A stretch of DNA of 64,000 nt from a virus. The translations under genes were made by a program, and so were the position numbers. The stretch lies in the IMG/VR virus record IMGVR_UViG_3300037063_000214; one strand, written 5' to 3'. Positions 13,874 through 39,543 of this stretch are shown piece after piece (the stretch's first letter is position 1; each line of letters begins with the position of its first letter). The notes under the pieces are model-generated. The model was not told the DNA's origin, did no database searches, and saw only the letters and a program-made list of their open reading frames with translations.

Positions 13874-13903
13874 TTGACAATTTTCCCCATTTTAGGGTAT
13901 TAT
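13874..13903 (+). promoter_or_regulatory. Consensus sigma70-like promoter TTGACA-N18-TATTAT
   Basis: ttgaca at 13874-13879, tattat at 13898-13903, in a 250-nt non-coding gap. A leader of about 148 nt precedes the 14052 ATG. Confidence 0.6.
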
Positions 13904-14051
13904 ATTCGATGGGGAGCTTCAGGTCATTGATCGACCGAATGGCTCCTAAAAGTGTTTATGGAGGAAAACAAAATATAAGTCCTACCAATTCAATGCTTTA
14001 CGGTGGACGAAGTAGCTACAAAATCTTGTAATTCAGAATAACGGAGATTAT

Positions 14052-14573: not shown

Positions 14574-14594
14574 TCTCGCACAGTATTAGTATGC

Positions 14595-14888: not shown

Positions 14889-14908
14889 ACCGTGGGGCGT
14901 AGCGTAAA

Positions 14909-15337: not shown

Positions 15338-15351
15338 TGTTATCTTCCTAT

Positions 15352-23600: not shown

Positions 23601-26258
23601 GGACTTCCTCCTGGTTTGTCTCTTGACGCTAATACAGGATTGATTTATGGAACTCTGGTTGGTTCATATTTTAGTCCAAGTGTGATACAGTATGTAGGAA
23701 CATCAGGGACAATTCACGGTACGGTGACAATTTCTTGGACAGTCGTCCAAAGTATGTTCCAGTTACAGGATAACATTATCGATAGTGAATTACTAGGTAC
23801 AATGTATCCATCAAATAGTAATATCTCTGTTCCTGGGGGTATTATTCCACAAACAGCTTCTATATTATACGGAAGATTGCCCTCTGGATTAACCCTCAGT
23901 GGTACCCCAACAGGACAAAATTTCTTGATCACCGGCACCCCACTGGAGGCTGGATACTTTGATGTCTGGTTTCAGATAACATCAACAAATAATCAATCAT
24001 CATATTTACACCACCGTTTTTCAATTAATTTTATTAATCCTTTGACAATTGTTACGACATTATTACCCAACATCAGCGCTCAATCTTTCGCTCCTTATTA
24101 CGCGCTTTTACAGGGATTCGGTGGAGTACCGCCCTATACTTGGTCGTCAAGTAACTTCCCCGGAGGTACGGGTATCGGGAACTTCTCAGGGCTGACTTTA
24201 TCTAGTAGTGGTGTAATATCTTCAGCATCTCCTTGGACGCAAGCCCCAGCTACTCCTACGGATTTGGGGGATATTTCTATAACTTTAACAGACTCTCGTG
24301 GTAGTAATTCGTCTGTAAACACATCTCTGGATTTATACTACAGTAATAGTTTGACTATTATAACTCCATCGCCTCACGGAATTGCAATAGTGACTGATGA
24401 TCCTAATGGGTACGCTTTTATCATGCAAGCAGCGGGTGGAAATCCACCGTATTCCTGGAGTTATTCTGGTGGTACTTTGCCTAGCGGTATATCATTTAGT
24501 TCTTTAGGTGCGTTTTCAGGTATATGGACTGGAAGTCCATATGTCGCAACTCCAATTACGATTACAGTACAGGATAGTACTTCCCCGACCCCTGTTACTA
24601 CATCGGCGGTTTTCAATATACAAACCGGATCACTTACAGCGGGGATTGAATTTTCAACTGGTAGTTTTAGTTTATTTAAGCCTCGTGTTGGAACTGTAGG
24701 GTTTATTCCACGAGGAGAACCATATCAAGGAACTCTTATAGGGATATGTACTCAGCCCCCAGTAGCATGGCAGATAGCTCCAACAGCAGCTTATTCCAAT
24801 ACTTTATTATCTGGATTAACTTTACAAGCTAGTGGTAACGGGGCTACGGCTACTATTTCTGGGACATACTCAGGAGTGCCTCATGTAGCTACAACTATAG
24901 ACGGAATATCTATTACACAAGTAGCTCGATCTGGAACCTTGACTACTATCACAGCTAATAATACATTACAAGTGGGGGATTATGTTATAGTAACATCTTC
25001 ATCTAATTCATCACTGAATGGAACATGGCTTGTAACATTTGTAGATGGTACATTCCCAGCATCTAATACATTATTCAAATTTAATACTGTGGCCTCAGGT
25101 ACAATTCTTCCCACAGCGGATACAGGAACAGCTACGGGATTGGGGTATATCATACGAGTAATCGCTGTCGATAATTTAGGTGATACAGCGGAGGCTCTGA
25201 TACCCCTTATAACAGGAACTAACTTAGTTGTCATAGGGTGGGATACTATACCTCCATCGAATTCCCCCTTCGGATATTCTTTTCCTTTACCGAATGATAT
25301 TATTACAGCACCTTATGGTCCTCTTCAGCTTATCGCAACCCACGGAGTACCGGTTGGTACTAATACAGATGGTTATAATCAATACACCTGGAATAGCCCA
25401 CAGTTTCCGTTAAACGGCCTCATACTCGCAGCGACAGGAGCAACATCAGGTCAAATATCTGGTGCAGCCTCATCTTTATTTAGTCCAAATCCTTTGAATT
25501 GTAGCTTTACAGTTACGGACAGTATCTATAATCAATCTACAATTATTTTACCCCTATTTTCACAAGTATCTGGACTAACTATTACAACGGTTGTACTACC
25601 TAATGTAATAGCCGGTCGAGCTTACGGTCCGATACAGATTACCGCGGCACTGGGTACCCCTCCTTATACATTCTCTGTGTCTCCGCGTACGGCTAGCCCT
25701 CTACCAACCGGAATCACTCTAACAAGTACAGGTGTTTTATCTGGTACTACTACTTTAGGTGGATACACAGAAAATGTGACACTGCGAGTTACGGATAGTA
25801 TCGGTGCTTATTCAGATACGACCTTCCCTCTGGTCGTTAAAGCTGGGTTGAATTTACAGACAGGTATCGACTATACGGACAGCACAAACACTTTGTCTTT
25901 AGGGTATATAACAGCGGCGGGTAATACTAACGATATAACCCCCAACCCAAATTTGTCTTTTTATGTTATAGCAACAGGGGTAATTTCCACCAGTTTGTCA
26001 AACCTTGTAATTACATTAAGTAACCCCAATGTTAATGCAAATCCCATCAGTCTAGTTAACGGGGTAGCTACATTTAGAATAAGTGAAACAACATCAGAGG
26101 GATTGAGCTTAGCATCTTTAGGTGTCAATAATTTAAGTGTAACAGTAGTGGATTCAGGAGTTAGTGTTACCAAAACATTTACATGGACAGTATACAACGA
26201 TGGAGTCATGGTGGTAGCCCCCGCAACGGGATCACTGCCAACACAAACAGTAGGATAA
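20643..26258 (+). CDS. Giant adhesin/fibre protein (1871 aa) with multiple putative-Ig (He_PIG / dystroglycan-type cadherin-like) repeats and two AYAGY...NNGTF-C modules
   Basis: Repeats such as GGLPPYTWSIPAGALPVGLSINPNTGLISGSP, SGLPPGLSLDANTGLIYGT, GGNPPYSWSYSGGTLPSGISFSS and GTPPYTFSVSPRTASPLPTGITLTSTGVLSGT. Also ANAYAGYTFAVSGFQNSVNNGTFLCT and GNAYAGQSFEVSGFPTAANNGTFYCT. Confidence 0.65.
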   Translation: MSNPNVPLYNSAPATAIVDQNYNLTLSWVPTPDPNTGLYTLYDHWDISSTVDSLPTQLVKFSPPAGWSTAGGSLTFTQVLSAGNVVTLSMQAWLDTAETTYLTNPWEISDLATPRFFPNALVSSTLTFYNGTSNSTSLELGQPLTVTLNPAYVAAGQWQILWPDGTNTGWLPLSIRAITKSFSTPGAGNVVIQTRYSYSGSQYDPPTTLIRQFTQQIYVVDQQSPQTQGTTVGLTGYLGISGQQGFEIVTSSTPGYTIQPWEVIARAIVRDTITNELKLLVATSRYSNASSLFGTMAVDVFPLEGRPHAKGLITPPYELTTTSQTETSPVVISTTSLPNLIVGKSVTQILGGVPLQLTTSAGSGIAPFIWNSTGLPNGIVMNTSGVVSGTPLELGLFYATFSVQDSSIPFSIAEVTLPLLVTTDLLVEIAPGQTDANGNTLVQTGSTLGWAQVNTPYAVQMQVGNINTSVSIPGGLPPYTWSIPAGALPVGLSINPNTGLISGSPCTYNSTTDFSTVYSATVQVTDAIGAKATQTYTMQLEPAMLTFGQLDQPVIYATQQFRLVVPVFGGLSPYVLSDFLIPSSDSSYYSTASLIDGQVILDCNFPQNATGVHTFSLIVRDSASHTANSSFNVNVESQTNESFLVPGFLDYAWQSSTDVSKPTPIPVTGNFSGFILNGLIVELDAVAAAAGGTTIYTDSGFGCSFGGGSANAYAGYTFAVSGFQNSVNNGTFLCTASTTSSLTLNNPNGVAENLFPITFTLTSTSPVTGVLTNVDSPFITTTTYTGTVSGGAGNAYAGQSFEVSGFPTAANNGTFYCTNSSSTTLTLSNPNGVAETGISSPPATAVQSSAKALQVQKGAVLSNGITVAIDPNVPEIEFSGPPSGVIGNAQYIVPLQFQLEFEGSIQATISQTFTTLAANAISPPWLTGDIGAISTTTRPYLFGASQNELVGLNPRKPFYNSPSIPAFSPTPTPTDGPWVAAVQSGSGLPPGLSLDANTGLIYGTLVGSYFSPSVIQYVGTSGTIHGTVTISWTVVQSMFQLQDNIIDSELLGTMYPSNSNISVPGGIIPQTASILYGRLPSGLTLSGTPTGQNFLITGTPLEAGYFDVWFQITSTNNQSSYLHHRFSINFINPLTIVTTLLPNISAQSFAPYYALLQGFGGVPPYTWSSSNFPGGTGIGNFSGLTLSSSGVISSASPWTQAPATPTDLGDISITLTDSRGSNSSVNTSLDLYYSNSLTIITPSPHGIAIVTDDPNGYAFIMQAAGGNPPYSWSYSGGTLPSGISFSSLGAFSGIWTGSPYVATPITITVQDSTSPTPVTTSAVFNIQTGSLTAGIEFSTGSFSLFKPRVGTVGFIPRGEPYQGTLIGICTQPPVAWQIAPTAAYSNTLLSGLTLQASGNGATATISGTYSGVPHVATTIDGISITQVARSGTLTTITANNTLQVGDYVIVTSSSNSSLNGTWLVTFVDGTFPASNTLFKFNTVASGTILPTADTGTATGLGYIIRVIAVDNLGDTAEALIPLITGTNLVVIGWDTIPPSNSPFGYSFPLPNDIITAPYGPLQLIATHGVPVGTNTDGYNQYTWNSPQFPLNGLILAATGATSGQISGAASSLFSPNPLNCSFTVTDSIYNQSTIILPLFSQVSGLTITTVVLPNVIAGRAYGPIQITAALGTPPYTFSVSPRTASPLPTGITLTSTGVLSGTTTLGGYTENVTLRVTDSIGAYSDTTFPLVVKAGLNLQTGIDYTDSTNTLSLGYITAAGNTNDITPNPNLSFYVIATGVISTSLSNLVITLSNPNVNANPISLVNGVATFRISETTSEGLSLASLGVNNLSVTVVDSGVSVTKTFTWTVYNDGVMVVAPATGSLPTQTVG

Positions 26259-26262
26259 AAAT

Positions 26263-28440
26263 ATGCCAACAGTAACAGAACAAATTAAAGTAACAGTAAC
26301 CGGAGCTAATCCAAATACTTATACATATTCTTTACCTGTGGATGTAACTACTGGATCTGGTGGTCCTCTAAGTATTACATTAACCGGCGTAAACCCAGGT
26401 CTGGACACAATTACGGCATCTATGGCATCTCACGGATATACATCAAATCCGGTAGAAGTAGCATGGCAACAAACAAACGGAACAGTGGCGGTAGGTCCTA
26501 TTTCCATAACTACTTACTCTTGTCCTAATGGATTTGTGGGTTATCCTGGTTTGACCGGTATTCTAGGGGGTCCTGTGATAGGTAATTCCCTAGTTCTTAA
26601 CCAAGAAAATGAAAACTGGCCGATTTCAGGATTTAATGACACTTTGGTACCTTGGGGCGCTTCGCATCCTACTCCTGATGGAGGTGGGTATAAATTAAAT
26701 CCAATGATCGTCGTAGAGCAAACATCATCGGGTGCTTACGCTAGTTATTTGGCAATACCTGGAACCGGTGGGAGTTTCACTTTAGATATGACGGGTAGCT
26801 TCGTGGTTAGTACCCCAGGAACTTACACTTTCTTTGTGGCTTTTGTGAACAGTGGCAACTACGGGGTATACATTGGAGGCGGGGCTACGGTAAGTTCCGC
26901 AACTAATGTTATTGGTCCCAACCCTTTTCCTTCTGTTGGACCTGTTAGTGGATTTCCTCTAGCTAGTCAAGTAAGTACAAACCTGGGTACTTATCCTCCA
27001 TACAGCTATATATATGTAAATTTTCCAGCGCCCGGGGTCTATCCATTCGAGGCAATTTATGTGCAAAGAACTTCAATTGATCCGGGGGGGTCTTCAAACG
27101 GAGCTTTTCAAATAGTTTATTTAGCTGGTACGCAACCAGATAATAATACCAATGTTGGATACCAGTCATATCCAGTTTCCCTAATATCAACACCGCCGAA
27201 TAGCAATCCCGGCACGGCACAGTTAGTGTTAACACCAACTGGTAGTGTAGCCCTGCAAGGAACATCTGATACACTCACTCTTGTAGTTCAAAACGTAATT
27301 TATACATCTTTTCCTTATTGTCCAATTTTCGAAGGAGTAAAGGGGTCTCTGTATGTGTCAAATGGGGTTAGTTCCGTTAACCCGAATTATTTTATCTATC
27401 CCACATACAACGGGAACAGCGTCAGCTTGACCGCCGCCGCTACACAAGGGGTTATAAATCTACAAGGAAATAACACATCATGGCAGGGTCGTTTAAGTCT
27501 TGCAGCCGATCCATCAAACAATTGGTTTGACTTAAATTACGGGGGTCAAAGTTTTGATTCCGGCGTAGCAAATACTCAACTTACAGTATATGCTGATGAT
27601 GTGGCATGGTATAATGCAGCAAATAAATCCTTCGATTCCTACGCGCCTCACTACCATGGGTACAACGGGGCGATTAGTTTTGGATTAGAAGTAGACTACA
27701 TGGTTAATCCGGGTTTGAATTCTCCTCCGGTTACATCATCTACGACATCTTTTTGGAGTTCAAGTTTCCCTCTAGGGTGTACAATCACTCTTAGTAAGCC
27801 CTTTTCACCTCAACAACAGGGAACTTTAGGGGACACGGGGAATTCTATTAGCTCGTCTATCACAGCCTCTGGAGGTGTGGTAATAACATCGACTAAACCA
27901 AATATTAACAGCTCTGGGTTTTTGACAGGTTGGACTCTTTATTTGCAGACCCCTCTTACTACCACAAACATTAATTTCAACATCATCGTTAATATTAGTG
28001 GTACGCTTACTTATTTGAATGGCACAAATTTTACTACGAAAGTTCTAACCTATGTTAATAACTACGCCATTCCATGCCTAGTTGTTGGCAGTCAATATCA
28101 AGCGCCAGTGTCTTACAGCTTTAGTACTACACCAGCATCTGGAAATGTTGCTGGCACATTTCAGTTATCAGCAACGGTGTATACAACAGACACGGGATCA
28201 GTGACTTTGAACTTTTTTAGGCAACCTTATCTTGGTGGAACATCTACTATATTGGGTGCTGGTATTTTAGGTACTCCGTATACAGGTACCGTGGGAGGTA
28301 AGACTGTATACTATAAACCCTTTACTCTGACTGTTACTATACCAACCGGGTTAGGGGATATGCTTATGGGATATATAGCAACTGATACTCTTAGTACCTT
28401 GTTTACCACTTATTACAGTTCCACGGAGTATAGTAGCTAA
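26263..28440 (+). CDS. Structural protein (725 aa), Thr/Ser/Gly-rich
   Basis: Long ORF coupled to neighbours; TAATG overlap at its 3' end. Confidence 0.6.
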   Translation: MPTVTEQIKVTVTGANPNTYTYSLPVDVTTGSGGPLSITLTGVNPGLDTITASMASHGYTSNPVEVAWQQTNGTVAVGPISITTYSCPNGFVGYPGLTGILGGPVIGNSLVLNQENENWPISGFNDTLVPWGASHPTPDGGGYKLNPMIVVEQTSSGAYASYLAIPGTGGSFTLDMTGSFVVSTPGTYTFFVAFVNSGNYGVYIGGGATVSSATNVIGPNPFPSVGPVSGFPLASQVSTNLGTYPPYSYIYVNFPAPGVYPFEAIYVQRTSIDPGGSSNGAFQIVYLAGTQPDNNTNVGYQSYPVSLISTPPNSNPGTAQLVLTPTGSVALQGTSDTLTLVVQNVIYTSFPYCPIFEGVKGSLYVSNGVSSVNPNYFIYPTYNGNSVSLTAAATQGVINLQGNNTSWQGRLSLAADPSNNWFDLNYGGQSFDSGVANTQLTVYADDVAWYNAANKSFDSYAPHYHGYNGAISFGLEVDYMVNPGLNSPPVTSSTTSFWSSSFPLGCTITLSKPFSPQQQGTLGDTGNSISSSITASGGVVITSTKPNINSSGFLTGWTLYLQTPLTTTNINFNIIVNISGTLTYLNGTNFTTKVLTYVNNYAIPCLVVGSQYQAPVSYSFSTTPASGNVAGTFQLSATVYTTDTGSVTLNFFRQPYLGGTSTILGAGILGTPYTGTVGGKTVYYKPFTLTVTIPTGLGDMLMGYIATDTLSTLFTTYYSSTEYSS

Positions 28441-29108
28441 TGGCAGACAATCTTGTTTACGGATACGCGGGACCACCATTCAATTTTTTGGGGCATTTCA
28501 GTGCAACGCAATGGAAGGCTTTTCAGAGCTACGTTAACGCTCGCACTAAAAATTTCCCAGCGATTCAACAACATTATCAAATTCGTGCCGCCCAACTGCG
28601 GAAGACCGCTGGTTTACTTGAAAAATTCTACGCCACAGTAAATGACATCCCACTTAACCCAACTTTCAATAAATTGGTTTGGAAACCAGGACCTCAAGGA
28701 CACTTTTACTACCCATTTCGGGATGATCATCTACCCATGGTCGCTATGTCCCAAATAAAATCGTATATGAGAGAACAATTTCAACGAATGGATGAAAGTG
28801 TATTTTCAATGAATCAGCTTCGCAATATCATTGAGAAAACAGAAGATAAAGCTCAAATTGCTAACATAGCTACTACTGATACTACCAGGGATATAGCTTC
28901 ATTAATTACTCAAATCAACAGTTATTTTAAGCAACCTCGCTTTGAGACTGTACTTGTAGACGATGTTTCAAATGTTTATCCAGCCGGGACGAGTAATCCT
29001 CGTTATAGCTGGCATAATTTAAACCCTCGTACACAATGGGAGATTGAACAAGTAGCAAATCCAGCGGGTACAGGAGCGTCTGTAAATATGCAGGATTTAG
29101 GGACATAA
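28440..29108 (+). CDS. Hypothetical structural/assembly protein (222 aa)
   Basis: TAATG overlap start. Non-repetitive composition, unlike the fibres, consistent with a baseplate or assembly protein. Confidence 0.55.
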   Translation: MADNLVYGYAGPPFNFLGHFSATQWKAFQSYVNARTKNFPAIQQHYQIRAAQLRKTAGLLEKFYATVNDIPLNPTFNKLVWKPGPQGHFYYPFRDDHLPMVAMSQIKSYMREQFQRMDESVFSMNQLRNIIEKTEDKAQIANIATTDTTRDIASLITQINSYFKQPRFETVLVDDVSNVYPAGTSNPRYSWHNLNPRTQWEIEQVANPAGTGASVNMQDLGT

Positions 29109-29109
29109 A

Positions 29110-29904
29110 ATGGGTACATATGATTACAATGTATTGACTAGCGACCCAATGTCTAAAGCTCCCATTGGAGCATGTAACCACGTTATCTCCTTTGAGCGGA
29201 TGGTAGTAAATCAAAACGATTTCCGTACTTTGAACTACGCTGGAAACACCACTCTCAATATGAGAGGTCCAATTAACGGAAGTACGAATGTGCAAATTTG
29301 GATTAGTGGAGAAGAGATTTTCTCCGATGATCCCGTTTACGGCTGGCAAGTTGTAATAGACCCAAATCGGATAGATACTTCAATACCGGCGGGTATTTTT
29401 TACAAAATAGTATTTAATCAATCGGTCAGATTAGTAATCCCACTAATTGAGGTATCTTATATTACTATACAAGGGTTCTGCTTAAAGTGCAGCGCTACGG
29501 GGTATGTGAATGATTTAAAACCATCTACTTCAGGTAATTTTTTACATGTTTCTGGAGCTAGTAAGTTAGTGCAAAAATCATTTAAATGGATTCTTGCATC
29601 AATGTGTCCCTTTTACCCTACTTTTATATGTCAGATTAAAAATTATCTAGGGAGAAAACTAGGGGCTCAAATTACAGATACCGATATTCAAACAGAAGTA
29701 GTGAATACTCTTAGTACGATGCAACAAGTTCAACAAGCGCAGGGAACAGTACAAAGTCTTGACCCACGGGAGATTCTAAAAGATATCATAAATGTAGTCG
29801 CTATTATTAGCCCAACTGATCCGACCACAATTTTACTGACAATTACGGTATCTAATTATAGTGGGCAGACGGTACCAATGAATTTTGAATTACCAATGAA
29901 TTAA
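29110..29904 (+). CDS. Hypothetical structural protein (264 aa)
   Basis: Starts 2 nt after the upstream stop; same operon. Confidence 0.55.
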   Translation: MGTYDYNVLTSDPMSKAPIGACNHVISFERMVVNQNDFRTLNYAGNTTLNMRGPINGSTNVQIWISGEEIFSDDPVYGWQVVIDPNRIDTSIPAGIFYKIVFNQSVRLVIPLIEVSYITIQGFCLKCSATGYVNDLKPSTSGNFLHVSGASKLVQKSFKWILASMCPFYPTFICQIKNYLGRKLGAQITDTDIQTEVVNTLSTMQQVQQAQGTVQSLDPREILKDIINVVAIISPTDPTTILLTITVSNYSGQTVPMNFELPMN

Positions 29905-29908
29905 ATAT

Positions 29909-32900
29909 ATGTCATCACCAGCCACAACATTATCGCCGTTTATATTGGTCACCCCAGTTCTTCCTCCGGGTACAACGGTATTGTCTACGGATTCTTCGGT
30001 ATTGCCGTTCATTATTAACGCTAGTTTAGATACAACGAGAATAGAAATAGGCATCTACAATACCGTTTATGGGGTTGATACTTACACTACAAACACCAAT
30101 CAAAATCAGTTTACCTTAAGTGTACCTTTAATTCTTACGACAGCAAATACTAATGTACAGATAATTGGGCGTAATTATGATCCCACACAATTTCCTAACG
30201 GCTGGCTCGCTAGTACATCCGTAGCTCCAAATTTTGATTTTGCTGACCCCAACGGAAATGTTCAAGTGGTGTTGGGTACTTTAGTAAATAATCCTTTATC
30301 TTTAAATATCACATCTGGCACTACGGGAATCGTTCAACCATCATGGAATACCGCTATTCCAGCTAATATCACATATGTGAGCCTAGCTTATGGAACTTCA
30401 GTAATAGCTACACTCACAGCCGCTAATAATTTTGTAGCGGGACAATATGTTTACCTTACACGATTGACCAACGCTTCATTTTTGAACGGGCAACTGGTGG
30501 TAGTTTTACCGGGAGTAACACCTACTCAATTTCAAGTAGCTGTAATTAATACCCCTCTAACCTATTTGGCTCAACCGGATACGGGTTATGCCCAATCCAT
30601 TACCCTAGATAATGGGGTTGTATGGACAAACATAGGGCCTATAGCTGTCACCCCCATTGTTAAATTTTCATTACTGGCGTATCAAAGTAATTTATCTATG
30701 GCGATTTCCCCGCCCTCTGGTATTACCGCTAGTAAAAATCAATCAGAGTGTTTAATACAGTGGGTTACTCCAAATTATCCGGGCTTCATCGGGGTCAGAG
30801 TGATGCTGTCTACTGATCCAGCTGGAATCAATCCCCCATACACTCAGTTTGGGGATTTAGTTTCAAACATCAGCAGCACCGCACCTACAATTATTGATAC
30901 TGAAACCACCAGTGCAACCAATGTGTCTGAAGTTATTATTACCGGCATTGGTATTTTTAACAATGTCTTGACGGTACAAGCACAAAATACATTCACCCCG
31001 GGTACAGTGGTTCAGTTTTCTAATATAGCCAACGCAGATTTTCTTGATAATGAAACGGTCACTATATTGACGACCACACCGTCTCAATTCACAGCTAGTT
31101 ATACATCTTTGAATTATCCTAACCCTACCACTTCATCCCTCTTTATTGCAGCAGATACAGGACAGGCTACAAGTATCGTATCCACAAACATTGTTACAAA
31201 TACAAGCACAGTAATGGAGACAAATTATAGCAGTGTAGAGATTCCGTATACAACTATTAACAATTCCATATTTTATGCTCTGTTTTCCACGATAATTCAA
31301 GACCCAGGAACAAATACAATGTACGAGTCTGTGCAAAACGGACCTTTAACCTGCGGCTTTGTAAACCTACAACTGGCTAATCCTACAGATTTTCCCGTTC
31401 TACAACGCAAAGAAGACATTGCCGGTAGATTGATTACTCAAATTACTCGGCAACTTCCGAATTTGGATTTGTCACCCCGTTCAGAAATCCGTGATATGTT
31501 TATCGATCCTTTTTCGATTGAGCTAGCAAGTATGTCTGTGCGTGAATGGTTCGCCAGGGTTTCAGAATCTATCTCCGCTATTTCTCAAGTTGATAATGTT
31601 AGTGGAAACGGCGTATCCGACCCATTTCAATCATCACCATATAAACAACAAATCGCTAGGGCTTTTGGTTTATCCGCAATAAGCACTCAAACCCTTATCA
31701 ATCAGCAGTTTGATTTATTGGGTGGGCAGGCTGGGTTAACTCGTTTGGGGGCTTCTACAGCTACCGGAGTTGCTACATTCTACGCCTATCAGCAACCGCA
31801 GTCCAGCATTACGATTCCCGAAGGGGCAGTGATCGCCACATCTCCGGATTCTAACACTGCCGCGGTGAGTTTCACTACTCTAGGGCAAGGGGTTATTAAT
31901 TTATCTAATCTATCCGCGTTCTACAACTCCCAATCTGGCTGGTGGGGAGTAAGCGTACCCATACAATGTACGCAACCAGGTTCAATCGGCAATGTAGGCG
32001 CTGGTACAATTACTCAAACAGTCACAGGTGTTCAGGCTGGGGTGAGTGTTACTAATTTAACCGCCGCACAATACGGAACAGACCAAGAAACCAATGCTGC
32101 ATTTGCTGCTAGAATTCAAGCTCGTTTGGTAACTGGAATTGATAATAGCTCACGAAATGGGTATTTGGTCAATGCTTTAAGCACTCCCGGTATCATTGGG
32201 GCTCAAATTGTGGCAGCTGGTGATTTGGACATGCTCAGAGACTGGGATCCTACTCGACAAAAGCATGTCTTTGGCTGCGTGGATATTTATGTGCGAGGTA
32301 CTACATACTCAGAGCAAAATGAGTTTGTCCCATTTCAGTACGCCAACAACGGAACGTACGGCATCTATAATACCTATTCTTCACTCGTTTACCAAGCGGG
32401 GACACTTCAGTTTCAAATTCAAGGTTATAATACTTTGGCGTATCCTCCATACGATGGTGTGGAACTACTGGTATCTCGTTCATCTACTCAGAGTTTTTAT
32501 CTGTCATTAGATAGAGCCCAATTCGTGAATAACACTGTTATTCTAAACCCCAATGATATAGCATATCAATATGCAGGTAACTCAATTACATATGCTAAGG
32601 TTGCGCTGAATATTAATAATGTTCCAGCCACAAATCAAGCCGCCTTAGCAGCTATCTCTGGTGCTTTGGTTAATACTTACACTTTTCAGTTGTTATTCCG
32701 TGAAAAATCAACTTTTATCCATGCTCCTGCGTTACAGCCTATAATTCAAGTGAATTCTATTACAGGGGAACCTACTCCTACTGGCACAGGCGTGGTTAAT
32801 TCGAATATTGTGAGTTTGATTCATACATCAGATTTTTTACTCAACGGTGGATCAAACAACGCTGGGGATCTGGTTGAAGTAGCAATACAAAGTCAACCTA

Positions 32901-34657
32901 TTACAAATGTTATTACAGCCAGCACTATGAATCCGGTGTTGATTGACACCGCGATGGATGTCCCCCTGAATAATAATGGAAATCCTTTGAATGTTTTATC
33001 TGTTCTTAGTCAGGATATGTCAACTTCTTATATTTATGGAACAGACTACACTATCGTTCCCTACGGTCCTTATCATCAGTATGGTTTGCAAGTTCTTACT
33101 TCTACTGTCGTAGTCACGGGAGTGAATATAAGTAATAATGTGATTACAGTCATAGCAAATAATGAGTTTGGTATAGGATCTTCTGTAACATTAAACGGGT
33201 TTACAAACTCATCTTTCTTGAACGGCCAAGTTCTTACAATCGCCACAGCAACGTCTTCATTTTTTACAGCTACCTTTACTTATCCCAGCTATGTCGGTAT
33301 AGATAGCGGTACAGCGATGGGCAGCGCCATTCAAAATAATCAACAGGTATCTGTAACATATAACAAATTTGTCTTATATGAACGCCTGAACTTTGTAAGC
33401 GAAGAAACTCAGATACTTACCGGGTCTCTTCCTACTATGTTGGATAACGATGGTTTTGTATATAATGTATGGTTGCCTCAGAGTTACACAACTGGGATAC
33501 CTACTTTTCCCGTTACTCAGCTTGGGTATTCTTTGCTACTTGATGGATGGGACGGGCAGTATAACACTATAGACGGTGGTTTGGATACAGGGGGTTCTTT
33601 AACTTTTGATCCATCTGGTCTAGTGGGTAATCAAGTTCCTTATGCCTCTAGATATATCAAGGTGACATATAATAATGGAATTTTAGATGTAGTGATGCAA
33701 GAAGGTTTAGATTTTACTTTAACCGTCGATCCTACAACAAAGGCAGCAACCATTACTCGTATTCTTACTGGTAAGATACCTGACGGCGCTACAGTTAATG
33801 TATCGTATTTTACCTTGGAAACTTTTACATTTTCTACCCAGTATCCATCTTTTGTACAAGTTTTAGCAACCGCCATCGCTCAAACTCAGTCTGCTTGTGC
33901 AGACGTAGCGATTAAAGCTATGGTAAGTAACCCTATTGATATTACACTTACAGTTACCCTTAACGCCAGCACATCTCCAGCAACTGTGGATCCTATTATT
34001 CGTACAGTCATTGATATTGTGCTAGATAACGCCGTAGGTACATTATATCAATCTGAGTTGATTACACAAATCCAGTCGATTACCGGAGTGCAAAATATTG
34101 AAATACCTCTTTTGAGATGCGCTAAATCTGATGGCAGTTATGATATCGGGGTTGTAATTCCCACAGGCACGAAATGGATTCCACTTTCATCTGACTCAGC
34201 TTTCGCCGGTATTAGTACCCCAAAAAATAGTTGGATTACAGCGGACCCCGTGCTGCCGGATACTACGATTCCATCTGGAGGGGCGGTGGATGCTATTGTA
34301 GATTTTCTTTATCAAGGACAGGCTTTTCAAAGAGCTTTATCTATTCAAAATTTTCTAACCAATCCTGTGACAGTTCAAAATATCGCTGTTCCTCCAGGTG
34401 CTACTTATGATACTCCCGGCTCATTTTATATCATAGGGCAGAATGATGAGATTAGTTCCACGGTGTCTTTACCCAATTCTTATTCTCAAAGAATTATCGC
34501 TACAGTCCCTGAAAATATTTTGAATCCGTCTTATTATAGTTACTTCTGTACTTATCAAGTTTATAATGAAGGGGGTGCGTCCGATGTAACTGTATCGCCC
34601 ACAGAATATCTATCCCCCGGGACTGTTACGATCGCATATCAAATAGCGGGGCAATAA
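29909..34657 (+). CDS. Giant structural protein (1582 aa) with three or more GF-T-N-x-x-F-L-N-G...FTA modules
   Basis: AGQYVYLTRLTNASFLNGQLVVVL..TQFQVAV; GTVVQFSNIANADFLDNETVTILTTTPSQFTASY; SSVTLNGFTNSSFLNGQVLTIATATSSFFTATF. Confidence 0.65.
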   Translation: MSSPATTLSPFILVTPVLPPGTTVLSTDSSVLPFIINASLDTTRIEIGIYNTVYGVDTYTTNTNQNQFTLSVPLILTTANTNVQIIGRNYDPTQFPNGWLASTSVAPNFDFADPNGNVQVVLGTLVNNPLSLNITSGTTGIVQPSWNTAIPANITYVSLAYGTSVIATLTAANNFVAGQYVYLTRLTNASFLNGQLVVVLPGVTPTQFQVAVINTPLTYLAQPDTGYAQSITLDNGVVWTNIGPIAVTPIVKFSLLAYQSNLSMAISPPSGITASKNQSECLIQWVTPNYPGFIGVRVMLSTDPAGINPPYTQFGDLVSNISSTAPTIIDTETTSATNVSEVIITGIGIFNNVLTVQAQNTFTPGTVVQFSNIANADFLDNETVTILTTTPSQFTASYTSLNYPNPTTSSLFIAADTGQATSIVSTNIVTNTSTVMETNYSSVEIPYTTINNSIFYALFSTIIQDPGTNTMYESVQNGPLTCGFVNLQLANPTDFPVLQRKEDIAGRLITQITRQLPNLDLSPRSEIRDMFIDPFSIELASMSVREWFARVSESISAISQVDNVSGNGVSDPFQSSPYKQQIARAFGLSAISTQTLINQQFDLLGGQAGLTRLGASTATGVATFYAYQQPQSSITIPEGAVIATSPDSNTAAVSFTTLGQGVINLSNLSAFYNSQSGWWGVSVPIQCTQPGSIGNVGAGTITQTVTGVQAGVSVTNLTAAQYGTDQETNAAFAARIQARLVTGIDNSSRNGYLVNALSTPGIIGAQIVAAGDLDMLRDWDPTRQKHVFGCVDIYVRGTTYSEQNEFVPFQYANNGTYGIYNTYSSLVYQAGTLQFQIQGYNTLAYPPYDGVELLVSRSSTQSFYLSLDRAQFVNNTVILNPNDIAYQYAGNSITYAKVALNINNVPATNQAALAAISGALVNTYTFQLLFREKSTFIHAPALQPIIQVNSITGEPTPTGTGVVNSNIVSLIHTSDFLLNGGSNNAGDLVEVAIQSQPITNVITASTMNPVLIDTAMDVPLNNNGNPLNVLSVLSQDMSTSYIYGTDYTIVPYGPYHQYGLQVLTSTVVVTGVNISNNVITVIANNEFGIGSSVTLNGFTNSSFLNGQVLTIATATSSFFTATFTYPSYVGIDSGTAMGSAIQNNQQVSVTYNKFVLYERLNFVSEETQILTGSLPTMLDNDGFVYNVWLPQSYTTGIPTFPVTQLGYSLLLDGWDGQYNTIDGGLDTGGSLTFDPSGLVGNQVPYASRYIKVTYNNGILDVVMQEGLDFTLTVDPTTKAATITRILTGKIPDGATVNVSYFTLETFTFSTQYPSFVQVLATAIAQTQSACADVAIKAMVSNPIDITLTVTLNASTSPATVDPIIRTVIDIVLDNAVGTLYQSELITQIQSITGVQNIEIPLLRCAKSDGSYDIGVVIPTGTKWIPLSSDSAFAGISTPKNSWITADPVLPDTTIPSGGAVDAIVDFLYQGQAFQRALSIQNFLTNPVTVQNIAVPPGATYDTPGSFYIIGQNDEISSTVSLPNSYSQRIIATVPENILNPSYYSYFCTYQVYNEGGASDVTVSPTEYLSPGTVTIAYQIAGQ

Positions 34658-37116
34658 TGGCTAATCTTATTAATAATAACCCAGATTTACTATATATCCG
34701 TAGCCGAGAAGATTTACTACAATTTTCTGACAGTCGGCTGAACTCACTTTTACAAGCTGTGGCGAATTTTTACACTACTCGTAATGACCAATCTACGTGG
34801 GGTAATTTTCTTCGAGCCTTGGCGGATGAGCTAGCAACCCTAGATTATGATTATGCCTATGATATCGTCAATAAAAGTCCCAGCTTTCTCACTCCCACGG
34901 ATATTCGTCGCCGCTGGGCAGCACCTTTGTATGTAAGTTCTAACTGGCCCAGCCAAGGGCAGTTTGATTTGGCGTTTAAAGCCATGCTCGTAGAGTTGAT
35001 TGCCGCTTATCAGCAAGGCACCACAGTGGCAGCTATTCAAGATGTAATTTATGCCTACACAGGTATTGATATTCAGGTACAAGAATTGTATAAACAGATA
35101 GGGAACGGAGTTTACGATCAATCTGATAGGAATTCTCTTCTGGTTAGTGTGAATGTGGGAAATGCGGGTTCAAATCCTCTTACAACTATTACATCTCTGG
35201 CACAGCTTCAAACTATCATTCAAAGTTTATATACAGCCATTGATCTAGCAAAACCAGCACATGTGGGGTTGGAATTTACTACAGTATTCAGTGAAGGGGA
35301 GCAATTGGACTGCATACTAAGTCCAACATACTTGACCCAGCAGCAGTACATTACAATGACCCAGGGTGTACAAGCGTACTATGTTAAAACTGGGTATGTT
35401 CCGACCAATCCCCCATTATTTTGGTTGGGAAATACAACCTATTTATTAAATAGTTTGGTTCTAGATTCGAATCAAAATTTTCAGTTAGTGACCGGTTCTA
35501 CAGGATTGGGGGAGACAGGGGTTACTGTACCAGTTTGGAATACCTTATCAGAAGGTACGACAAATGATAATCAACTCACATGGACAAATATTTCCCCCGC
35601 GGTGACAAGTATTGAAATACAAAACAATATAGTTACTGTTAGCCTTAATTTTTCTGCCCCTTTGAGTTTGGGAAATATAGTTACTTTGATAAATTTGGGG
35701 TACGCTACTTTTTTGAACGGTGTAGCTCTTACTGTACTCTCTGTAACGGGTAATACTTTTACAGCTGCCTACAATTATATCAACTCCCCGCCAAATTATG
35801 GACCTACTACCGAAACTCAAGGTACCGCAACTTTTGTTTTTCCGCCAGTGATTACAGCGACTCAGTGGCTTGCCTTACCGTTACAGTGGCAGGCGTTATA
35901 TCAGTTACAGTACACAAATGAGAATTGTCAATCTACCGGAATTAACGATATCTTGCGAATTTATGTGCGCCAAGTTGAAACTCCACCGTGGGGACCGATG
36001 TTGATACAAGCTCCTGTGCTAGACCCAGCGAATCCGTCTACTACAATTGCGGCGTATGGAAGATTATTAAGTCCTACGCTTACACCGAGCGCCTGGTCAA
36101 TATTGCCTAATATTTTTGTAGATGTAACAAGCGCCTATTCTGATGGTATGAACGCTACCTATACTTATATTCCTCGCACTCAATTTCTCCATGATGGGGA
36201 ACAGCTAACCATAACAGGGTTTACAAATCCAGCGTTAAATGTAACCGCTAGGATACATAAGGTTACAAATTTAGTTGCCAATGTGACGGGAGTAAATATC
36301 ACTACTATGGGCTCGCCTCCTGTTAGTACTTTAACTGTAAGTACCGACTCTAATTTTTTATACCCAGGGGCTATTGTTAATTTTGCTAATACCGCTGAAT
36401 CTTTTTTGAATGATACAGAAGTGGTTGTACTTACCGCCAGTCCAACAGGATTTACCGCTATTGCGCCATTGAGTGCTCCAACTTCTTATATTAATTCAGC
36501 GGATACAGGTACAGCAGAGGTTACGTCCTTTCAAATACCTTTAGCTCAAGTTATAGCATTGGAAACTCAGGACGGAACATCGGCAGGGTTAGTAACCCCA
36601 ACTCTGCAATCTGCGTATTACTACTCGGACGGAAATTATATACTAGGGCAAGCTCCAATTAATACAACAGGAGCGGGACAAGGAGAAAGCTGGAATCCTG
36701 GGGAGAGTGTGTTTATCGGACAGTTGATTGTAGATTCTAATGGATACACTCAAATAGCCTTAAATAGTGGAACTACAAATTCCGTTAGTCCTATTTGGTC
36801 TACAGAATTAGACGCAACTACTGAAGATAATGGTGGTGGTGGGTTTGACCTAGTTCGTTTACCTCATCCTATTATTACATCACAAGGAGTTACATGGCAA
36901 AATTTGGGTATGAGTACATTATCTGATCCAAAAAATTGGGTCGGTATATTGAATTTTAATGTAGAAATAATTCCTCCAGCACTTGTTCCTTTTACCGGAG
37001 AAGTAGGTAATTGGGACATTCTACATCTTTATGGTTTAGTTGCTCCCAGGCTTTCGCAGACTTGGGAGATATCGGGTGATCCGCAGGATCAAGATTTCAT
37101 ATTTGGGCTTTTTTAG
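34657..37116 (+). CDS. Large structural protein (819 aa) with three GF-T-N...FTA modules
   Basis: TAATG overlap. NIVTLINLGYATFLNGVALTVLSVTGNTFTAAY; QLTITGFTNPALNVTARIHKVTN; AIVNFANTAESFLNDTEVVVLTASPTGFTAIA. Confidence 0.65.
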   Translation: MANLINNNPDLLYIRSREDLLQFSDSRLNSLLQAVANFYTTRNDQSTWGNFLRALADELATLDYDYAYDIVNKSPSFLTPTDIRRRWAAPLYVSSNWPSQGQFDLAFKAMLVELIAAYQQGTTVAAIQDVIYAYTGIDIQVQELYKQIGNGVYDQSDRNSLLVSVNVGNAGSNPLTTITSLAQLQTIIQSLYTAIDLAKPAHVGLEFTTVFSEGEQLDCILSPTYLTQQQYITMTQGVQAYYVKTGYVPTNPPLFWLGNTTYLLNSLVLDSNQNFQLVTGSTGLGETGVTVPVWNTLSEGTTNDNQLTWTNISPAVTSIEIQNNIVTVSLNFSAPLSLGNIVTLINLGYATFLNGVALTVLSVTGNTFTAAYNYINSPPNYGPTTETQGTATFVFPPVITATQWLALPLQWQALYQLQYTNENCQSTGINDILRIYVRQVETPPWGPMLIQAPVLDPANPSTTIAAYGRLLSPTLTPSAWSILPNIFVDVTSAYSDGMNATYTYIPRTQFLHDGEQLTITGFTNPALNVTARIHKVTNLVANVTGVNITTMGSPPVSTLTVSTDSNFLYPGAIVNFANTAESFLNDTEVVVLTASPTGFTAIAPLSAPTSYINSADTGTAEVTSFQIPLAQVIALETQDGTSAGLVTPTLQSAYYYSDGNYILGQAPINTTGAGQGESWNPGESVFIGQLIVDSNGYTQIALNSGTTNSVSPIWSTELDATTEDNGGGGFDLVRLPHPIITSQGVTWQNLGMSTLSDPKNWVGILNFNVEIIPPALVPFTGEVGNWDILHLYGLVAPRLSQTWEISGDPQDQDFIFGLF

Positions 37117-37136: not shown

Positions 37137-38579
37137 ATGATAAAAGCAACTAAAATCGCTTATGTAAGCCCCCCACATGGAGAATTGGTTCTTACCCTAA
37201 TCCATGACGCTAATCCCCGCGCGACCCTCACTTTAGACTTGGGGATTCCCAATTTCACCGTTTTTTCTATGACCTTACCTCTAGCTGAAGGGGAACCTAA
37301 AGCTATGTCAGAACTCATAGCGGAATCTGTCCATGTGCTCCTGGATGAAGTAGCCTCTTTTATGCTTAGCATGGAATATGAAGATGCAGTAATCAAACTT
37401 ATTTATGCAACTGTACTTACATGTTTTAAGGGCATGAGTCAAGAAGCGGATACATCTAAAGAACAAGATGAATCGGGACAAGATCCAACGGTGAAAATGT
37501 TTGAAGGAACATTCGATATTCCGATGGACTTCATCAATGAAACTCAGCGCAAGGTGGTTACAGCTTCCACATCAGCTACAGCATCGTCAAAAATACGCCG
37601 TGATCCACCAACTCGTCATATTGAGTTTACTTACTCTCCGAAAGAGAAGATCAAAGCTATTGATACAGCGCGTGTTATACGGCAGTATAGAAATCGCAGC
37701 CTCAAGCAGCAACCTCGTCCTATGTATGTAATCGTGTATAATCAAATGGGTAGACCCACCGGTACTATTCTCGTTGGCCCCGGTAAAAATTTCAAAAATG
37801 AACTGCTGCATAAGATGAAAAAGAGCAGTGTGGATTTTACTGAGCCCGTAAGTTTTGTCAATGAACAAGAAATGAAATCGTCTCCGCTTAACGGTATTCC
37901 CCGCACTATATCTGTTGGCGGAATGACTTACCAACCGGAGTCTGTTTCTGGGGGAGATATGTGTTTGTATCACGGACCGCAAGATTACATCGTCAAGTTC
38001 GTAGATGGTCGTTCCCAAATATTCCCCGGTCGCCCCACTTTCCGTAAAATGCGGCAATTAAATTTCCCCGTACCCACTAAACGATATCGCTGGACAACTA
38101 TTCCAGAAAATTATTTGAAACAGCCAAAACCTCATATCCCCGAAGAAGAACCGAAAGAAGCGGCCTATGAGGATTCAGAAAAACTAAAAAATACAGTTCA
38201 AGCAGAATCGGTGGATAAGGTAACAAAAGATTTAGTGTATTTAAAACCTATGAAAACCTATGATGATTTAGTACCCTTGGATATTTTGAAGAAACGACTT
38301 CTGCGAGATAAGTTAGCAGATAGACCTATTTTTGAAGGTAAGATGGTAATTGACCGTATTGGGCATAGGGGAGTATATGAAGGTCAATTTAAATTGATCA
38401 TCCCACAGTATTTTATTCGAAGATATGGGGTACAGCGTGACGATGGTACTTTTTCAGTGTATCATTTAAGAAGGGATGGAAAAGCAAGGCGCGTAGGCTT
38501 ACGCCCTGTTCCAGCGGAAGAATTTCGAGAGGCAAAACCCATTGGAGAAGATGATGCAAACGCAAGTGGAGCTGTATAA
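37137..38579 (+). CDS. Basic (K/R-rich) hypothetical protein (480 aa), possibly an internal or DNA-associated virion protein
   Basis: Composition changes sharply from the preceding fibre proteins. Confidence 0.55.
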   Translation: MIKATKIAYVSPPHGELVLTLIHDANPRATLTLDLGIPNFTVFSMTLPLAEGEPKAMSELIAESVHVLLDEVASFMLSMEYEDAVIKLIYATVLTCFKGMSQEADTSKEQDESGQDPTVKMFEGTFDIPMDFINETQRKVVTASTSATASSKIRRDPPTRHIEFTYSPKEKIKAIDTARVIRQYRNRSLKQQPRPMYVIVYNQMGRPTGTILVGPGKNFKNELLHKMKKSSVDFTEPVSFVNEQEMKSSPLNGIPRTISVGGMTYQPESVSGGDMCLYHGPQDYIVKFVDGRSQIFPGRPTFRKMRQLNFPVPTKRYRWTTIPENYLKQPKPHIPEEEPKEAAYEDSEKLKNTVQAESVDKVTKDLVYLKPMKTYDDLVPLDILKKRLLRDKLADRPIFEGKMVIDRIGHRGVYEGQFKLIIPQYFIRRYGVQRDDGTFSVYHLRRDGKARRVGLRPVPAEEFREAKPIGEDDANASGAV

Positions 38580-38865: not shown

Positions 38866-39543
38866 ATGGTTTATAAAGAGGTTTCAATGCCAATTCAATA
38901 TAAAGATGAGTTTTATACACAAAAGCCACCTATCGACTCGGGTTATATTCGTATCATGAGGGCGGATACCGGAGAAATTCTCTGGCAGCAAAAAAATGTC
39001 ATAACGAATACCGTAAAATGGCTTTTTGCACGGCTCATGGCAAATGCCCTTCCTAACGCTCCGCAGCCGCCCTATACGCTAGGGCAATCTGGGGTGTATG
39101 CTGACCCCCTTTATGGCATCTGGGGGCTTGCAATAGGCTCTGGAAGCCCTAGCTGGGCCCCTGAGACGCAACCTGACCCGACTCCTACTCAAACCGCCTT
39201 GATTTCTCAATTCCTGCGTAAAAAGTTGACCCGTATCAATTATGTGGACACGAATTTTACCCCATTGAACACATTCAGTACCATGGTTGATTTTCAAACT
39301 ACGGTAAATGCGACCACAGATAATATCACGCAAGCAATTAGAGAAATGGGATTGATTGGAGGCGGGACTTTAATTGGAGCAGGGGGACAACCCACTGACA
39401 TGCAAACAGCTCCATATTTTAATCCTACGGGAACCCCCCCAGGACCAGCTGATAGCGTAGTGCTTATAAACTACAAAACACTGCCACCATTGATTCTTCC
39501 GAGCGGAGTTGATATAATTTTCAGCTGGATCCTACAATTTTGA
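38866..39543 (+). CDS. Hypothetical protein (225 aa)
   Basis: ORF starts 4 nt after the upstream stop; last gene of the + late operon. Confidence 0.5.
   Translation: MVYKEVSMPIQYKDEFYTQKPPIDSGYIRIMRADTGEILWQQKNVITNTVKWLFARLMANALPNAPQPPYTLGQSGVYADPLYGIWGLAIGSGSPSWAPETQPDPTPTQTALISQFLRKKLTRINYVDTNFTPLNTFSTMVDFQTTVNATTDNITQAIREMGLIGGGTLIGAGGQPTDMQTAPYFNPTGTPPGPADSVVLINYKTLPPLILPSGVDIIFSWILQF

Follow-up and report, generated by a model that had tools for sequence, protein, structure and literature searches.

Five proteins encoded by a 64,000-nucleotide stretch of viral DNA (IMG/VR record IMGVR_UViG_3300037063_000214; here, the window) share a short recurring sequence module, raising the questions of whether this module is a genuine domain, which fold it adopts, and what it does in the proteins that carry it. 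A sequence-only reading of the window had proposed a unit of ~35 residues without a named domain, present in at least 11 copies, that would form a mobile beta-sandwich-like element of fibre and adhesin proteins.

Extent and copy number of the core module

A detection HMM built from metagenomic sequences only, with zero window sequences, was run on the 342 open reading frames (ORFs) of the window. This external-only HMM retrieved seven copies of the core module (i-E 3.9e-21 to 1.8e-6), three in gpA, two in gpB, and one each in gpC and gpD (Table 1). The core unit spans 67 to 78 residues, the ~35-residue consensus covering its centre only. Profile searches of the window ORFs recovered a recurring module in the five ORFs originally named, at or around the positions given for it, including all three copies in gpA (i-E 2.4e-17 to 3.9e-21) and the single copy in gpC. 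Two of the three copies listed for gpB, the first and the last, were likewise recovered. The middle one, possibly a degenerate barrel, found no support from the core profile (E 0.3 to 0.8) and reached an E of 8e-4 only with an iterated, drifted type-2 profile. The core copy in gpD had been overlooked. The robust total is 10 (7 core and 3 variant copies) in place of at least 11.

Reversed or shuffled window ORFs used as controls gave at best an E of 0.1, indicating that the similarity is not compositional low complexity. The host proteins of the modules are rich in T, N, S, and V, with sizeable HMMER bias terms on some matches, as would be expected if composition were the sole source of the similarity and no domain existed. 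We give this explanation practically no credence, since it is refuted by the E values of the external-only HMM (down to 4e-21) in comparison to those of the controls, by the hundreds of homologues, and by a fold model with a pLDDT of 95.6 (see below); the column-specific conservation of the profile, which includes an invariant Gly, also argues against it. The most conserved profile residues (T11, N16, G21, L35, N36, G37, F50, D64, and G66) resemble core and turn residues more than the lining of a binding pocket.

Table 1. Module-bearing proteins and module copies in the window
Feature	Position	Strand	Evidence and remarks
gpA, baseplate wedge protein (Baseplate_J/T4 gp6-like), 1582 aa	29909-34657	+	Pfam Baseplate_J 2e-16; phrog_6 1.6e-24
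gpB, second baseplate protein, 819 aa	34657-37116	+	Homology to Tunturi_5 gp240
gpC, fibre-like protein with CBM_5_12	9301-12657	+	CBM_5_12 6.7e-8 (Pfam)
gpD, fibre/adhesin-like protein	20643-26258	+	Six He_PIG Ig-like stretches (Pfam)
Core module gpA-1	30383-30601	+	aa 159-231; i-E 2.4e-17, external-only HMM
Core module gpA-2	30941-31177	+	aa 345-423; i-E 8.8e-21, external-only HMM
Core module gpA-3	33116-33325	+	aa 1070-1139; i-E 3.9e-21, external-only HMM
Core module gpB-1	35605-35838	+	aa 317-394; i-E 7.6e-16, external-only HMM
Core module gpB-2 (third gpB copy of the sequence-only reading)	36322-36525	+	aa 556-623; i-E 2.4e-11, external-only HMM
Core module gpC	12124-12351	+	aa 942-1017; i-E 5.4e-15, external-only HMM
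Core module gpD, divergent	24915-25142	+	i-E 1.8e-6, external-only HMM; 1.4e-6, A2 HMM
Doubtful gpB copy, possibly degenerate barrel	36181-36297	+	aa 509-547; E 0.27-0.76, core profiles
Type-2 module D1, gpD	22713-22928	+	i-E 1.6e-23, type-2 profile
Type-2 module D2, gpD	22980-23174	+	i-E 1.3e-26, type-2 profile
Type-2 module E1, 261-aa ORF 15352-16137	15451-15639	-	i-E 7.6e-29, type-2 profile

Predicted fold of the core module and probable relationship to E1_FCCH

The AlphaFold2 model of gpA-3 (pLDDT 95.6) contains six strands arranged in a beta-barrel rather than the beta-sandwich-like unit anticipated, and the core module is predicted to fold autonomously as such a barrel. Among the BFVD models, similar barrels (TM 0.6 to 0.8) occur in baseplate J-like, wedge, tail protein I, Mtd-like, and fibre proteins.

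The Pfam family E1_FCCH (PF16190), the first catalytic cysteine half-domain of UBA1 and UBA7, matched 16 of 113 single domains of the core module family at E<0.01 (best E, 6.4e-7) and two of six window copies (best E, 1.7e-4). Among the window proteins, the best match was that of gpC (residues 947 to 999; E 0.0078), which, at 16.7 bits, is below the gathering threshold of 29.5 bits; a 10-copy homologue (P0001) reached 39.8 bits by summation, above the same cut-off applied to whole proteins. Thus, the module does have a relative among named domains, and the view that it belongs to none holds for the window copies only in that their Pfam assignment is unconfident; since their best score falls short of the threshold, an already described family accounts for them only in part. 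Alignment by hhalign of the core module alignment A2 with 16 nonredundant E1 FCCH fragments, a low-diversity set (Neff 2.1), gave a P of 0.001 and a probability of ~21% over 31 columns, in the expected register. The FCCH region of UBA7 appeared as a weak match in the PDB profile search, and searching PDB sequences with profiles A1 and A2 returned nothing significant. Two other PDB matches were discarded: Utp21, a 17-residue coincidence around "ATFLNGQ," and designed Kelch repeat proteins (SAKe), obtained by phmmer with one homologue domain, an artefact of summing six subthreshold repeats.

E1_FCCH and the core module are both six-stranded antiparallel barrels of ~70 residues, both are insertions inside a larger host protein, and the stretch G-[DQ]-x-V-x-[FL]-S-...-L-N-G is in register between the two. 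Unlike E1_FCCH, the core module occurs in multiple copies, has no link to ubiquitin chemistry, and resides in baseplate and fibre proteins of the virion instead of an E1 adenylation domain: no ThiF or E1 domain was found in the module-bearing window proteins, whose domains are of the Baseplate_J, baseplate, fibre-like, and Ig-repeat types. Together, these results indicate that the core module is a real domain family, previously unnamed as a sequence family and probably a distant relative of the FCCH barrel found in ubiquitin-activating E1 enzymes.

Gain, loss, and divergence of modules

The nearest cultured relative of the phage is Tunturiibacter phage Tunturi_5. Outside the modules, gpA is 44 to 46% identical to the "baseplate wedge subunit" gp241 of Tunturi_5, and residues 9 to 222 of gpB are 47% identical to its 344-residue "baseplate protein" gp240 (BLASTP). 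Beyond residue 222, only the short islands 431 to 476 and 787 to 808 of gpB align with gp240. On this comparison, gpB consists of a conserved N-terminal part of 222 residues and, for the remainder, mostly of inserted domains.

Module presence or absence was compared site by site in P0010, P0026, P0075, P0045, P0057, P0033, and P0130. The gpA-1 copy lies within a segment that is present in the orthologues P0010 and P0026 and missing in gp241; gpA-2 is present in P0010 and lacking in P0026 and gp241; gpA-3 is missing in gp241. For gpB, both copies are present in P0075 and P0045 and missing in gp240, and P0057 has a tandem double at the gpB-1 site and no module at the gpB-2 site. In the gpC orthologue P0033, a second module occupies a site at which gpC itself has none. 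Single modules have therefore been gained, lost, and duplicated between orthologues at defined sites, and these clean differences in gpA, gpB, and gpC support the earlier proposal that the unit is mobile, here as a cassette of baseplate and fibre proteins. Modules also diverge faster than their scaffolds, with 36 to 51% identity where the scaffold has 66%.

Each window copy is 45 to 55% identical to copies in other phages versus 17 to 43% to the other window copies. Recent intragenomic duplication was rejected as the source of the copies because the foreign copies are closer and because no DNA-level similarity exceeding 15 to 19 bp was found among the window copies. Over its history, the module was inserted, lost, and exchanged at numerous sites in baseplate and fibre proteins, and it probably entered gpA and gpB, the two large wedge proteins of the baseplate, and the two fibre/adhesin-like proteins (gpC and gpD) as a self-contained cassette.

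The type-2 variant

The three variant copies of the sequence-only reading exist and are very alike. The minus-strand ORF that contains one of them adjoins the lysozyme gene, as described; it lies directly upstream of the Phage_lysozyme gene at 14909-15337 (PF00959, 1.6e-11). The identity of the variant with the core module, in contrast, was not demonstrable, as hhalign comparison gave a P of ~1e-3 and a probability of 20 to 23% over just 34 columns. The core HMM gave E values of 0.2 to 2.3 on type-2 fragments, and a bridge search revealed no instance significant for both pure profiles. Searching of type-2 members with Pfam gave no E1_FCCH match, only scattered, unrelated weak ones, and comparison of the variant with the E1 FCCH profile revealed no similarity either. 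The type-2 variant thus appears from its sequence to be a separate family, weakly linked to the core.

These results, together with an AlphaFold2 model of the minus-strand copy having a pLDDT of 73.8 and four clear strands only, are what an unrelated small domain would give if the G-x-x-V-x-x-x-G-F ... N-G motif were shared by convergence or composition. We regard this explanation as unlikely, albeit deserving some weight, since the order and the register of the motifs are identical over the whole unit, the predicted strands occupy the positions of core strands 2 to 5, both module types occur together in single proteins (P0054, P0091, P0030, and P0105), and the iterated type-2 profile starts to gather core copies. 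The two types also share the same weak top fold matches. Our tentative reading, and the most likely one, is that the variant may be a strongly diverged barrel of the core's kind.

Distribution and host

Exhaustive HMMER searching of metagenomes revealed 625 cluster representatives of the core family at E<=1e-3, of which 156 also passed E<=1e-10, and single proteins contained as many as 10 copies; a word-indexed homology search with a six-copy alignment gave 231 candidates, none of which was significant. Homologues of the module proteins are all metagenomic "hypothetical proteins." Genomes and IMG/VR were scanned with patterns derived from one consensus-like member, the 113-sequence alignment containing no sufficiently conserved stretch, so that the resulting taxonomic picture is biased to close relatives. 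The family occurred at 65 IMG/VR loci, and 27 of the 29 genome loci were in Acidobacteriota metagenome-assembled genomes. Some of the chromosomal module proteins of Acidobacteriota are secreted and carry Big_2 or Ig-like domains.

A tblastn search of 50,697 phage genomes with the consensus of either module type gave no match, a result to which the low-complexity filter may contribute. The DNA of 29909-37116 matched no cultured phage, and no module was found anywhere in the 40-kb structural region of Tunturi_5. In these scans, biased as they are to close relatives, the family appears restricted to metagenomic phages and Acidobacteriota genomes and is carried by no cultured phage. The window originates from an uncultured soil phage with a jumbo-phage-like structural module, and the host is probably a member of the Acidobacteriota, a phylum for which very few phages have been cultured. 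With a name and a predicted fold, a block that recurs without annotation in the large structural proteins of Acidobacteriota phages from soil and peat can now be defined as a domain family (~70 residues, at least 625 clusters, alignment available).

Proposed role of the barrels

Exposed adhesion to glycans or surfaces is the likely role of the modules. We infer outward exposure because the modules are dispensable between orthologues and diverge faster than their scaffolds; the barrels would project from the baseplate periphery and from the fibres. There, they could bind host surface polysaccharide multivalently and with low affinity, much like the barrel that binds polysialic acid in endosialidase tailspikes and the Ig-like decorations of other phages, and module turnover could tune adsorption and host range. 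As a whole, we consider it fairly probable that FCCH-like barrel cassettes in baseplate and fibre proteins are exposed and bind host polysaccharide.

Alternatively, the barrels could be structural and play no part in host recognition; as spacers or intersubunit "glue," they would enlarge and stabilize the large phage's baseplate. The conserved positions of the module look structural, modules are located not in fibres alone but also in gpA and gpB, which are core wedge proteins, and no ligand has been demonstrated for the FCCH domains of siphophage tail tubes (PMC13576161). We nevertheless find this role rather improbable: an essential architectural function is hard to reconcile with the clean gain and loss of modules between close orthologues and with their full absence from Tunturi_5. 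The faster divergence of the modules also speaks against a structural role, as does the occurrence of the same domain in secreted proteins of the host and in CBM- and Ig-bearing fibre-like proteins.

The preferred reading, an exposed polysaccharide-binding barrel, can be extended. The barrel could be a glycan- or surface-binding module common to secreted proteins of the Acidobacteriota and to their phages, captured from the host (or the reverse), and inserted, duplicated, and replaced combinatorially at ~10 baseplate and fibre sites, and its family could be a prokaryotic or viral sister group of the eukaryotic E1 FCCH. We view this extension as speculative and hold it to be doubtful. If true, host sharing and combinatorial use would amount to a lineage-specific host-range toolkit, and a sister-group relationship would offer a handle on the origin of the eukaryotic domain. 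The presence and absence of modules in orthologues already provide a clean example of cassette-style evolution of baseplate proteins, and the module boundaries provide exact cut points for host-range domain swaps or deletions.

Comparison with known phage decoration domains

Accessory decoration domains are commonplace on virion proteins. FCCH-type barrels on phage tails have been published; those fused to siphophage tail tube proteins of the PF08813 family (NBD2 gp39, MED16 gp13, and the FCWL1 tail tube, 9jlf) are outward-facing decorations of the tube (PMC13576161). Like these domains, the core module, as predicted, joins an FCCH-type barrel to a structural protein of the virion. The tube protein bears its domain once, at the N terminus, whereas the core module is inserted internally, one to three times per protein, into baseplate wedge and fibre proteins, shares just 12% sequence identity with the tail-tube domain, and has no sequence-level match to any cultured phage (tblastn). 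In endosialidase tailspikes (phi92, 4hiz; K1F endoNF), a lectin-like barrel is part of a receptor-binding protein, in which it provides a polysialic-acid site and a hotspot of host discrimination (PMC12632334). That barrel is 15% identical to the core module with no sequence-profile link, and its enzyme context is absent for the core module. Ig-like, CBM, and PKD-type domains (Big_2, He_PIG, and CBM_5_12) follow the same evolutionary logic as small, mobile, surface-exposed accessories of the virion, but they adopt a sandwich fold and not a closed barrel. Such domains are found beside the core module, namely, CBM_5_12 in gpC, He_PIG in gpD, and K319L-like PKD and Big_2 in homologues.

Identification of the core module

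The sequence-only reading had described a recurring module of ~35 residues. The recurrence is real and far beyond chance, but the unit, delimited by eye, extends over ~70 residues, with the consensus I-x-I-x-N-N-V-l-T-V-x-A-x-N-x-F-x-x-G-x-x-V-x-L-x-G-f-t-n-a-s-F-L-N-G-Q-x-v-t-I-x-t-a-T-x-x-x-F-T-A ... Y ... a-D-T-G-T-A. Using the six obvious window copies as the query, HMMER was run exhaustively against 1.84 billion cluster representatives. It matched 625 proteins at E<=1e-3, of which 156 also passed 1e-10 and 17 passed 1e-30; single proteins carried up to ten core modules. A profile built from 107 foreign domains and no window sequence was run against the 342 ORFs of the window. It recovered seven copies (i-E values of 3.9e-21 to 1.8e-6), three in gpA, two in gpB, and one each in gpC and gpD. 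The next-best real ORF gave 0.12, and among 2052 controls with reversed or shuffled sequence the lowest value was 0.1. The modules are located on baseplate and fiber proteins, as had been proposed. Two of the three copies previously assigned to gpB were thus retrieved; the middle one gave E values of 0.27 to 0.76 with core profiles and reached 8e-4 only with a drifted, iterated profile. The divergent gpD copy had been missed, and because of it gpD carries both module types (one core, two type-2).

DNA similarity among the core copies comprised nothing longer than 15 to 19 bp. Protein identity between them was 17 to 43%, and every window copy had a nearer relative (45 to 55% identity) in another metagenomic protein, indicating that the copies are old and not recent duplicates.

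Coordinates of genes, modules, and neighboring features in the window
Feature	Position	Strand	Description
gpC	9301-12657		Fiber-like; core module at aa 942-1017
CBM_5_12 in gpC	10510-10626		aa 404-442; 6.7e-8
Minus-strand island	12661-16137	-	Breaks the plus-strand structural run; 378-aa ORF, Phage_lysozyme, and type-2 ORF
Phage_lysozyme	14909-15337	-	
Type-2 ORF	15352-16137	-	261 aa; type-2 unit at aa 165-235; directly upstream of the lysozyme gene; putative virion protein at most
Cys-rich ORF	16192-16599	+	135 aa; adjoins the island; repeated C-x-C / C-x-x-C motifs
ORF	16600-20640		1346 aa; weaker CBM_5_12 match at aa 271-294
gpD	20643-26258	+	Fiber/adhesin-like; six He_PIG Ig-like stretches
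Core module in gpD	24915-25142	+	Seventh, divergent copy
Small wedge proteins	28440-29904		
gpA	29909-34657	+	1582 aa; wedge core (Baseplate_J / phrog_6) at aa 596-794; one core module at aa 1070-1139
Second motif in gpA	~30335-30640		
gpB	34657-37116	+	819 aa; N-terminal 222 aa conserved
Second motif in gpB	~35500-35600		
Doubtful core copy in gpB	~36181-36297		Middle copy
Second motif in gpB	~36760-36910		
ORF	37137-38579		480 aa; between gpB and the BW3TFN ORF
BW3TFN ORF	38866-39543	+	Second gene downstream of gpB; baseplate wedge 3 tail fiber network component match, 27.2 bits versus a cut-off of 27
Sedolisin-type peptidase	57370-59541	+	Pro-kumamolisin activation domain and Peptidase_S8; weak C-terminal GEVED match; phage-like surroundings

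Predicted fold and relationship to E1_FCCH

AlphaFold2 modeling of the third gpA copy from a 113-sequence alignment (pLDDT 95.6, pTM 0.79) predicted a six-stranded barrel instead of the β-sandwich-like unit suggested previously, a fold assignment that is firm for a prediction. Structures listed with this model were the phage FCWL1 tail tube protein (9jlf_E; 7.7, 12% identity), the phi92 endosialidase (4hiz_A; 7.6, 15% identity), human UBA1 (4p22_B, 7.4, 22%; 9mc4_A, 7.1, 21%), and the isolated mouse FCCH domain (2v31_A; 5.3, 22%). Foldseek comparison with BFVD revealed similar barrels (TM 0.6 to 0.8, 20 to 33% identity, E of 0.01 or weaker) in baseplate J-like, wedge, tail protein I, Mtd-like, and fiber models from uncultured phages.

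The sole recurrent Pfam match was E1_FCCH (PF16190), the first catalytic cysteine half-domain of ubiquitin-activating E1, found for 2 of 6 window copies and 16 of 113 family members (best E, 6.4e-7). The ten-copy metagenomic homologue P0001 scored 39.8 bits, exceeding the 29.5-bit cut-off. The window copies themselves fall below the Pfam threshold and hence are not members by that measure. An E1 FCCH set was assembled with a bait sequence, 97% identical to a database entry, which gave 110 matches, all except the weakest annotated as PF16190. Comparison of the module profile with these E1 fragments, a low-diversity alignment, by hhalign (P = 0.001, probability 21%) paired a-x-N-x-F-x-x-G-q-x-V-x-L-s-g-l-t-x-a-t-f-L-N-G-q of the module with A-R-H-G-F-E-S-G-D-F-V-S-F-S-E-V-Q-G-M-x-E-L-N-G of E1. 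Homology with E1 FCCH is likely, though short of proof.

No source gave a name for any core-module homologue. The family is new and unnamed; its named relative has been described on phage tails before. In NBD2 and MED16, the tail-tube protein bears an FCCH-type barrel on the tube exterior, and among the architectures of the PF08813 family is one with E1 FCCH fused at the N terminus (PMC13576161). The family should be no surprise for a phage structural biologist; it helps the annotation of Acidobacteriota phages and domain-swap experiments.

The type-2 variant

Three further units, two in gpD and one in the minus-strand ORF, had been read as a variant of the same module. They are related to one another (44 to 59% identity) and, judged by sequence, constitute their own family. 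Of the 150 homologues listed with the core module, four also contain type-2 units (P0054, P0091, P0030, and P0105), as do 14 small ORFs or fragments from metagenomes. Identity with the core module fared less well. The core HMM gave E values of 0.2 to 2.3 on type-2 units, and hhalign aligned the two over 34 columns, in the register originally proposed, with P values of 8.7e-4 to 1.1e-3 and a probability of 20 to 23%. No instance was significant for both pure profiles, and Pfam returned no FCCH match on type-2 members. The sequence link is weak. In the AlphaFold2 model of type-2 (21-sequence alignment, pLDDT 73.8), the predicted strands (residues 4-8, 23-26, 36-43, and 47-51) correspond to core strands 2 to 5, which is no more than suggestive of kinship. 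We consider a common ancestry of the two types fairly likely. On the whole, the earlier interpretation of the recurring module was half right: mobility and a place on baseplate and fiber proteins hold up, whereas the unit is a barrel related to a named domain.

Insertion, loss, and turnover of modules

Comparison of gpA with its orthologue in Tunturi_5, the nearest cultured relative, showed collinear proteins with 44 to 46% identity, all three modules lying in segments that the orthologue is without. Likewise, gpB and the 344-aa gp240 have aa 9-222, 431-476, and 787-808 in common; the intervening sequence, including both modules, is extra in gpB. Neither module type was found in the 40-kb structural region of Tunturi_5. 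Sites were compared among metagenomic orthologues (P-numbered proteins) by scoring gap-free residues in the module columns. Single modules were present or absent at defined sites, bearing out the proposed mobility.

Presence of core modules at individual sites among orthologues
Site	Present	Absent
gpA site 1	gpA, P0010, P0026	Tunturi_5
gpA site 2	gpA, P0010	P0026, Tunturi_5
gpA site 3	gpA, P0010, P0026	Tunturi_5
gpA fourth, C-terminal site	P0010 only	gpA, P0026, Tunturi_5
gpB site 1	gpB, P0075, P0045; tandemly doubled in P0057	Tunturi_5
gpB site 2	gpB, P0075, P0045	P0057, Tunturi_5
gpB-family N-terminal site	P0057 only	gpB, P0075, P0045, Tunturi_5
gpC-family second site	P0033	gpC, P0130

At shared sites, module divergence usually exceeded scaffold divergence, with identities of 36 to 51% versus 66% for gpA and P0010, 37 to 45% versus 63% for gpB and P0075, and 41% versus 56% for gpC and P0033; the one exception was gpB site 1 against P0045 (56% versus 50%). 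This pattern is compatible with units that are exposed, dispensable, and fast-evolving or replaceable.

Another short motif, P-x-W-N/S-T ... D-N/G ... V/L-T/V-W-T/Q-N-I/L-G/S (the second motif of the table), was seen at three places, each adjoining a module, and the first gpA module is seemingly nested within it. This motif may be another small accessory domain. Residues 255-311 of gpB weakly match phrog_20658 (head decoration).

Distribution

A pattern scan of IMG/VR retrieved 65 loci with the core module on contigs ranging from 4 to 463 kb; three of these measured 332 to 463 kb, and many were 20 to 60 kb long. With one genome per species, 27 of 29 loci were in Acidobacteriota MAGs (Terriglobia, Terriglobales, Sulfotelmatobacter, and Acidiferrales). 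Both scans are biased to close relatives because they start from one consensus sequence. By tblastn, neither module consensus matched cultured phage genomes.

Several Acidobacteriota loci are chromosomal genes for secreted, non-phage-looking proteins, and relatives carry Big_2 or ASH/DUF1573 Ig-like domains. Signal peptides were found in L092 (1263-3149) and L069 (621-3161), the latter also with Big_2 domains; in both, the module is nested in another barrel-like N/G-H-G-Y-x-x-G-D unit. One host protein is lipoprotein-like, with the module nested in another N-H-G-Y-x-x-G-D barrel. L096 (387-2459) has a signal-like N terminus and a sub-threshold PD40 β-propeller-repeat match.

Proposed role

The domain family, predicted fold, insertion sites, turnover, and lineage association are documented. 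We infer an exposed, polysaccharide-binding role because the module is accompanied by CBM_5_12, He_PIG, PKD, and Big_2 domains and is also found in secreted host proteins. In gpC, the 1346-aa ORF, and gpD, the CBM_5_12 or He_PIG matches represent additional accessory binding domains. The barrels would project from the wedge periphery and the fibers. Weak, multivalent binding to polysaccharide on the host surface would help adsorption, and module gain, loss, and replacement could tune host range. The main rival explanation is that the modules are purely architectural. The best-conserved positions resemble core and turn residues, and tail-tube FCCH domains have no known ligand (PMC13576161), both of which count against binding.

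Phage and gene context

The window contains a long series of plus-strand structural genes and, elsewhere, genes for a lysozyme, a helicase, a RecA-like protein, and a sedolisin. The DNA of region 29909-37116 matched none of 50,697 cultured phage genomes, and protein searches identified Tunturi_5 (309 kb; host Tunturiibacter, Acidobacteriota) as the sole relative; the phage is without a close cultured relative. Tunturi_5 gp247 to gp240 encode a tail fiber, two giant proteins, minor tail, baseplate, wedge, and baseplate proteins. Gene order and size agree with those of the window; homology was tested for the gpA/gp241 and gpB/gp240 pairs. The phage is widespread in environmental data sets, since an identical gpB protein is indexed in 106 public metagenome-assembly blocks on contigs of up to 50 to 200 kb (e.g., sample WOOD18).
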